DNA of 64,000 nucleotides from sequence record PP925844.1; one strand, given 5' to 3'. Below are positions 5,793-5,964 of this stretch, piece by piece. The DNA comes from Escherichia phage Elenatom. Within the stretch, counting starts at the first letter, position 1, and each line of letters begins with the position of its first letter. The notes under the pieces were generated by a model. That model was not told where the DNA came from and made no database searches. It saw only the letters and a list, made by a program, of their open reading frames with translations. Both the position numbers and the translations under genes were made by a program.

Positions 5793-5964
5793 TACAATTT
5801 CCTCGTTAATTGAACATTGGAGCGATGCGTTTCAGAAGAGTAGCAGCACCTTTGGCAAATTTTCCATTTTATTCTCCAAATTATTTTCTATATCAGTAGT
5901 TGATATTGATATAGTACCATAATCAACTACTGATGTATATAGTTTTATGAAAAAATTTTAAACT

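Follow-up and report, generated by a model that had tools for sequence, protein, structure and literature searches.

The closest described relatives of the element analysed here are the PeSL (promoter-early stem-loop) cassettes of T4-like phages, which were defined in RB49 and phi1. Each such unit brings together the stop codon of the preceding gene, set in AT-rich DNA, an early promoter resembling the sigma-70 type, a stem-loop, and a Shine-Dalgarno (SD) sequence with a start codon (Arbiol et al. 2010, PMC2839356). Their stem-loops fell into five positional subclasses, one of which overlaps the -10 box, and G-T pairs were marked in the stems; the PeSL promoters were very strong, and one PeSL stem-loop acted on lacZ as a strong terminator would, lowering its expression (Arbiol et al. 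2010, PMC2839356). The main text of a later study extended PeSLs to the PST/T4 and nt-1/KVP40 phage pairs, tied them to indels, and did not mention the motB-cef element considered here (Comeau et al. 2014, PMC4122927). A related arrangement is known from the T4 genes e, soc, 49 and I-TevI, in which the promoter lies in hairpin-forming sequence, so that long transcripts fold and those started inside lack the 5' strand (PMC3014915). In the promoter-coupled terminators of bacteria, a stem-loop and a promoter also share DNA between tandem genes; there, the -35 is contributed by the stem, the spacer contains a T-tract, and transcription terminates some 10 bp before the start site (Fletcher et al., bioRxiv 2026, 10.64898/2026.08.19.745784).

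The window (the whole 64-kb stretch of DNA that was analysed) belongs to a Tequatrovirus and, around the element, is 99.5-99.7% identical to phages ES21, 107 and ACG-C40. The palindromic segment is the intergenic region between motB and cef, where the genes are on the minus strand. The upstream gene, motB (5965-6456, minus strand, 163 aa), was assigned from the ORF list and from the MotB annotation in these near-identical phages and in T4, and its transcripts run into the element. Downstream lie cef (5577-5792, minus strand, 71 aa) and, next after it, goF (5164-5577, minus strand), both assigned from the ORF list and annotated relatives. These are the genes that the candidate early promoter in the element would serve. 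The palindrome of T4, T2 and AR1 is base-identical to that of the window; the -35 of the same element begins at T4 position 6629, and window position 5904 corresponds to about T4 6594.

An ORF of 89 aa lies intact between motB and cef, behind the identical cassette, in T2, AR1 and many other Tequatroviruses (positions 314-583 in both the T2 locus, L003, and the AR1 locus, L005). About 208 bp of this ORF are deleted in the window and in T4 between AAAAT(T) microhomologies, with the junction within 5859-5864. Alignment with T2 and AR1 identified its counterpart in the window as an out-of-frame remnant of 11 codons (5832-5867, minus strand; MENLPKVLLLF, then stop), which sits behind a perfect SD/RegB site. 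Two further features of the window concern its relation to other phages. The topoisomerase II large subunit is encoded by a single ORF of 606 aa (2458-4278, minus strand), a T2-type fusion of genes 60 and 39 without the mobA/gene 60 insertion that splits the T4 version. The coordinates of gene 41 are 19771-21198 in the window and 20728-22155 in ACG-C40, which is near-identical at motB; the offset implies that the window lacks roughly 950 bp within about 8500-19800.

The two arms of the repeat, ATCAGTAGTTGAT (5892-5904) and ATCAACTACTGAT (5922-5934) on the plus strand, are perfect inverted copies of one another over 13 bp; they are separated by 17 nt and enclose TGGTACTAT, the extended -10 on the minus (coding) strand. 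The first-pass annotation had placed the same repeat around a -10-like TATAGTACCA, in a description that proved accurate. This -10-like sequence (5910-5919, plus strand), when reverse-complemented, gives the extended -10 TGGTACTATA of the minus strand. Since all genes here are minus-strand genes, the element must be read on that strand. Read in this way, the 5' arm ATCAGTAGTTGAT (5922-5934) occupies promoter positions -30 to -18, within the spacer, and the 3' arm ATCAACTACTGAT (5892-5904) would form +1 to +13 of the promoter's own transcript. No other perfect inverted repeat of at least 13 bp (loop up to 60 nt) was found in the 64-kb window, for which a first-order Markov model expects 0.18. 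On its own, the 13-bp repeat is mildly unusual and weak evidence; its non-randomness follows from the context, namely the fold, the axis on the -10, the conservation, and the equivalent hairpins at orthologous promoters.

The 3' arm is the ancestral cassette leader, of which an identical copy lies at 25442-25454. The leader sequence CATTTTATTCTCCAAAT (5865-5881, plus strand) recurs exactly at 25421-25437 and 51704-51720, in agreement with the shared cassette leader that had been claimed for this segment. Sister cassettes lie at 25413-25509, 51696-51789, 50284-50350 and 39718-39784. The sister cassette at 25443-25509 differs from the element by the spacer and two -35 bases only, and it carries the leader ATCAACTACTGAT too; the spacer of the element is an exact inverted copy of that leader. 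The first-pass description of a variant of the cassette was thus apt, the variation being a spacer replaced relative to the sister cassettes. The adjacent leader, inverted and put in place of the original spacer, would be the product expected from a single template-switch event.

Upstream of the -35, an AT-rich, UP-like region, AGTTTAAAATTTTTTCATAAAACTA (5940-5964, minus strand), is near-identical to its counterparts in the cassettes at 25489 and 51769. The canonical GTTTAC -35 is indeed missing, as had been pointed out, and the cassette GTTTAC reads ATATAC here. In the sigma-70 register, this corresponds to TATACA (5934-5939, minus strand) in place of the TTTACA of the canonical cassettes, a single mismatch at the canonical 17-bp spacing, and TATACA also serves as the -35 in the orthologous cef promoters of Dhakavirus. 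The extended -10 (5911-5919, minus strand), made up of TGG (5919-5917) and TACTAT (5916-5911), lies in the hairpin loop. Alignment with the canonical cassettes of the window places the predicted transcription start at the A of ATCAAC (5904, minus strand), 7 nt past the -10. The candidate site scored 28.3 bits with a weight matrix built from the 15 other early promoters of the window, inside their leave-one-out range (17.4-43.8), and the top non-promoter position among 127,762 reached 15.7 bits with the same matrix. The suggestion of a rearranged, possibly inactive promoter was not borne out by these features. All elements bar one -35 base are in place, so that the promoter looks intact and is probably not dead; the -35 mismatch could weaken it.

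A T4 middle or late promoter was ruled out. Neither a MotA box TGCTT near -30 (middle) nor TATAAATA at -10 (late) was found on the minus strand between 5860 and 5965, and the listed middle promoters of T4 include none near position 6.6 kb. The literature search, which did not reach Miller 2003 (PMC150520) or Sanson & Uzan 1992 (PMC207620), the report in which the region was sequenced, found no T4 start-site or terminator map covering the site and no name such as Pe6.6 for it. The MotB papers do not discuss the motB-cef junction.

Compared with the PeSLs, the element shows every sequence-level feature of the class and would fall into the subclass whose stem-loop overlaps the -10 box. The AT-rich region (5964-5940) adjoins the motB stop codon (5965-5967), which is 25 nt ahead of the -35; a candidate early promoter of sigma-70 type follows (TATACA, 17 bp, TGG-TACTAT), with a 13-bp stem around its -10. 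An SD and a start codon stand at the 3' end, the ORF behind them being the deletion remnant here and the 89-aa frame in T2 and AR1. The genomic repetition of PeSLs and their association with indels in plastic regions are represented by the four sister cassettes and by the indel of about 208 bp immediately downstream. The differences concern the stem. It is AT-rich here, whereas the stems of RB49 and phi1 are GGGG/CCCC, and it surrounds the -10, whereas the stem-loops of the PST/T4 PeSLs, as presented in the main text of Comeau et al. 2014, lie just upstream of the promoter. It is also long for a PeSL, with 13 perfect pairs, a 17-nt loop and no U-tract, and because of these dimensions the 3' arm falls wholly within the transcribed leader. 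The element, known from sequence alone, thus appears to be an unusually long, perfect PeSL. The promoter-plus-stem-loop design is already known in T4-like phages, and the exact element is already present in T4. The arrangement of promoter-coupled terminators is not found here, where the stem brackets the -10 and reaches +13, and there is no T-tract.

Folding of the minus-strand transcript, a check that the first-pass annotation had proposed, gave a stable hairpin of -20.2 kcal/mol (z = -4.8). The sense RNA forms 13 bp, a 2x2 internal loop, 5 bp and a triloop, and in the inner 5-bp stem TGGTA (5919-5915) pairs with TATCA (5911-5907). Chimeric promoter controls folded as well in 3 of 240 cases, and the DNA fold of the region was about -11 kcal/mol. 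The promoter-initiated transcript contains the 3' arm only, and its structure was not significant (z = -0.3). Since the 5' arm lies at -30 to -18 and the 3' arm at +1 to +13, only read-through RNA from motB can fold. The terminator scan was negative all the way from the motB promoter (about 6529-6501) to the element, so read-through RNA with both arms must exist. The other proposal made at first pass, a stable hairpin regulating between two early genes, therefore stood in outline, given the conservation and the cross-genus covariation described below. It did not stand for the promoter's own RNA, which lacks the hairpin, and applies only to read-through from motB. As the palindrome is perfect, the sense and antisense folds are about equal (-20.2 and -20.9 kcal/mol), and the element itself is therefore nearly uninformative on RNA-level versus DNA-level selection.

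An intrinsic (Rho-independent) terminator is unlikely at this position. The stem is AT-rich, with four G-C pairs among 13 (tail, ATAGAAAATA), the bases that follow the hairpin, AUAGAAAAUA, contain no U-tract, and a consensus terminator scan of the minus strand at the element returned no match. A known RNA family was rejected as well, since the best match in Rfam 15, at 21 bits (E = 0.32), fell short of the gathering score, which is 65.

The leader beyond the hairpin carries a predicted processing site. The consensus for cleavage by RegB with S1 is the single-stranded 11-mer GGAGRAYARAA, with the optimum GGAGAAUAAAA (PMC1702504). The combined SD and putative RegB/S1 site, GGAGAATAAAA (5867-5877, minus strand), is an exact match to this optimum, 14 nt past the hairpin; its GGAG (5877-5874) is the SD, at +28 to +31, and the ATG lies at 5867-5865. 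RegB cleaves many early intergenic GGAG sites, among them that of the motB mRNA itself. The predicted accessibility from SD to AUG was 0.48 with the 5' arm and 0.56 without it in the window, and 0.48 and 0.46, respectively, in T2. The resemblance to T4 e, soc, 49 and I-TevI is therefore partial. As in those genes, the promoter's own transcripts would be unable to fold, with the 5' arm at -30 to -18 and the predicted start at the first base of the 3' arm. In those genes, however, the promoters are late and the SD/AUG lies in the helix, whereas here the promoter is of the early type, the helix ends at +13, and the SD lies 14 nt outside it.

The hairpin is conserved within the genus. About 495 of 500 Tequatrovirus records shared the 43-nt hairpin sequence and matched the 51-nt core with at most one difference, which lay outside the stem in the sequences aligned. 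The sole arm variant found was an A to G change in Shigella phage SsoM_113, which converts an A-U pair to G.U in the sense RNA. In an alignment of 12 Tequatrovirus sequences, variable positions numbered 3 among the 14 bases that separate the hairpin from the SD and 1 among the 43 of the hairpin. Selection specifically on the arms is nonetheless only weakly indicated within Tequatrovirus, because the whole cassette is highly conserved.

The cef-upstream regions of 11 phage records and 34 viral contigs were examined; a MotB-based scan of the viral contigs yielded 7 loci only, and Cef alignment together with tblastn matches reached the other genera. In nearly every lineage, we found an early promoter of the form T[T/A/G]TAC[A/T], 17 bp, TGA-TACTAT, with a spacer that pairs with the bases just past the -10. 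The stems placed around the same TGaTACTAT were unrelated in at least eight lineages, comprising Mosigvirus (GGTCTAT / ATAGACC), Dhakavirus (GGTAGGGTAGT... / ...ATTACCCTATC), Kanagawavirus (TTGGTGTAGGAcCAT / ATGtTCCTACACCAA), Marfavirus (TGGTAGGAGCGT / ATGCTCCTACCA), Karamvirus and Moonvirus (AGGGCTAT / ATAGCCCT), Gelderlandvirus (AGGGTTAT / ATAACCCT) and a Yersinia phage (TGATGAGACCAT / ATGGTCTCATCA). A common pairing register, with paired positions that sum to -23, was seen in eight lineages. In a gapless covariation alignment of 21 distinct sequences, 74.7% of the cells were paired, compared with 32-43% when the partner was slid by 1-3 columns. Both sides had changed in 8 of the 13 pairs, and the covariation score was 0.323 against 0.162 for shuffles, a value that none of 500 shuffles reached. 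RNAalifold independently predicted the same 8-bp core. The sense strand was the more stable one in 20 of 25 orthologous cef sequences. The axis in Tequatrovirus (pair sum -18) differs from the register of the other genera (-23), and on this account the Tequatrovirus palindrome seems to be analogous to their hairpins, not demonstrably homologous. In several genera the cef SD reads GGAA, and the link to RegB fails there.

Two further genera departed from this arrangement. In Jiaodavirus, the cef hairpin is confined to the spacer. The spacer hairpin in the cef promoter of the Klebsiella Jiaodaviruses (four loci), CCACAAGGATGTGG, also occurs in the window, in two promoters with a small spacer-only hairpin (2429-2460 and 47328-47359). 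In Gaprivervirus (four loci), a hairpin, TGATAGGG...CCCTATCA, lies about 40 nt upstream of cef and 2 nt from the SD, and no recognisable -35 is left at the motB-cef junction. The stem-loop may therefore outlive the promoter.

The same design recurred elsewhere in the window. Spacer and downstream sequence were complementary without interruption over at least 13 bp in 5 of its 16 early promoters and in 4 of 240 chimeras, which joined the upstream half of one promoter to the downstream half of another; the shuffle P for such a run was about 0.001 per promoter. Over -35 to +31, half of the promoters (8 of 16, the element included) folded at -18.7 kcal/mol or below; the chimeras averaged -9.8 (sd 4.2). 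In five of the eight, the SD downstream forms part of the helix; their -35 starts at 62174, 59562, 50330, 12600 and 7637 on the minus strand, and the last of these is the motB.2 promoter, which is identical in T4. These SD-region helices had energies of about -19 to -24 kcal/mol, and predicted SD accessibility was lower on read-through RNA at 62174, 59562, 50330 and 12600, but not at 7637. The logic of these five promoters resembles that of e, soc, 49 and I-TevI, but the promoters are early.

In the remaining three promoters, which are the motB-cef element, 19770 (upstream of dmd) and 54544, the helix leaves out the SD. At 19729-19764 and 54503-54538 (minus strand), a 15-bp hairpin surrounds the -10 in a register with the sum -23, exactly that of cef promoters in the other genera. 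Both the 19770 and the 54544 promoter have their -35 directly next to the stop codon of the preceding gene, and the former lies just after gene 41 and ahead of a 60-aa dmd-like ORF. In the seven other hairpins of the window, G.U pairs gave the sense strand an advantage in stability of 7-10 kcal/mol over the antisense strand. This bias argues for selection on RNA rather than on duplex DNA. In Klebsiella phage Marfa (locus L060, 1-50000), 6 of 7 early promoters carry a hairpin in the -23 register; the cassette GGTGTAGGAGCGTGATACTATGCTCCTACACC and variants of it are repeated there, with compensatory differences between paralogous copies. A terminator with a UUCG tetraloop and a T-run (e.g. GGGAGCCTTCGGGCTCC TTTTTTT) precedes three early promoters of the window (about 55348-55387, 51790-51830 and 14705-14744). 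Embedded hairpins are absent from these three promoters, and such terminators from the eight that are hairpin-embedded, an exclusion that is suggestive only, as chance would produce it about one time in ten among 16 promoters.

Several explanations compete with a stem-loop that acts on motB read-through RNA. The hairpin might discriminate between transcripts at translation, as in T4 e, soc, 49 and I-TevI, with the read-through RNA poorly translated and the internally started RNA translated. The paradigm is established in T4 (PMC3014915), and the ingredients are close by. The five SD-pairing promoters of the window join the spacer/-10 region to the SD, with a predicted loss of accessibility in all but 7637, and in the cef promoters of Karam-, Moon- and Gelderlandvirus the inner hairpin is extended by an outer stem of TTTCCTTG and GAGGAAA, in which the SD is paired. 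At the motB-cef element, however, the SD at +28 to +31 is well clear of the stem, and its predicted accessibility is the same with or without the 5' arm. SD masking was rejected at this element for that reason, and translational discrimination is unlikely to be its role. An element acting at the DNA level, either a cruciform that senses supercoiling or a symmetric site at which a bound dimeric protein would switch off the promoter, appeared quite improbable to us. The position of the axis would suit it, since a bound or extruded structure on the -10 would occlude the promoter, and the repeat is perfect, like operators and cruciform-prone sequences. Superhelix-driven cruciform extrusion that switches an engineered E. 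coli promoter has been described. But the orthologous and sister stems are unrelated in sequence, and many of their G.U pairs would be A.C mismatches on the other strand, as reflected in the sense bias of 7-10 kcal/mol. The single arm variant seen likewise gives G.U on the sense strand, and half-sites of 13 bp that lie 30 bp apart, centre to centre, are unlike known operators.

The length of the structure brings RNase III to mind, which could part the motB mRNA from the cef-goF mRNA. The coaxial structure of 13 bp, 2x2 internal loop and 5 bp amounts to about 20 bp-equivalents and comes near the E. coli RNase III minimum. The orthologous hairpins, of only 7-15 bp, are too short for RNase III, no Rfam family matched, and T4 mRNA is processed mainly by RegB and RNase E (PMC3014915); we find this reading scarcely probable. 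Finally, the palindrome might be an accident without function in a decayed promoter, produced by a template switch (a quasipalindrome) or by cassette recombination and kept by the similarity among Tequatroviruses. A single templated event would yield just what is seen when the element is compared with its sister cassettes, a 13-nt spacer that is an exact inverted copy of the adjoining leader. The chance expectation of 0.18 such repeats in 64 kb and the low diversity within the genus also speak for an accident. Against it, every promoter element is retained, and the design recurs, both at the same junction in other genera, with compensatory changes, and in half of the early promoters of the window and 6 of 7 in Marfa. 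Such an accident is very unlikely.

The reading that we favour, and consider reasonably likely, is that the element constitutes the core of a minus-strand early promoter cassette of the PeSL type, whose stem-loop attenuates or insulates read-through from motB, preferably as a nuclease barrier. Host RNA polymerase would start at about 5904 from TATACA, the 17-bp spacer and TGG-TACTAT. The locally started RNA would contain the 3' arm only, stay open, and be unaffected by the stem-loop. The motB read-through RNA would contain both arms and form the hairpin of about -20 kcal/mol, which would represent the 'SL' of the PeSL and serve as an attenuator or insulator on transcripts initiated upstream. 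Cleavage by RegB at GGAGAAUAAAA, 14-16 nt past the hairpin, would then leave a motB mRNA with a protected, structured 3' end, and the hairpin may also stop RNase E from passing from motB into cef. Intercistronic stabiliser hairpins such as the REP elements block 3' exonucleases in polycistronic mRNAs. The hairpin here is similar in its sequence features, being stable, free of a U-tract and located between cistrons, here with a predicted RegB site behind it; it differs in that it sits inside a promoter. Alternatively, the read-through polymerase might pause or partly terminate at the stem-loop, which is the idea published for PeSL stem-loops.

A more general and speculative proposal, which we put forward as possible but doubtful, is that T4-like early promoters are systematically built into hairpins as an RNA-level switch between a promoter's own transcript and the read-through of its neighbour. 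The stems would co-evolve at orthologous junctions with a bias towards the sense strand (G.U pairs), and the type that does not mask the SD, including the palindrome, would act not as a terminator but, together with RegB and RNase E, as a boundary of programmed decay.

The gain from the element itself is incremental, because its kind has been published. If the favoured reading is true, the palindrome would not be damage to a promoter but the functional stem-loop of a compact unit that combines promoter and insulator, in the best-studied phage, and it would explain the separate control of motB and of cef/goF in tandem early units that lack terminators. Covariation at one orthologous junction in at least eight lineages, together with the sense bias, adds support to the idea that PeSL stem-loops are selected as RNA, and the comparative data point to a link with RegB-triggered decay of early mRNA.
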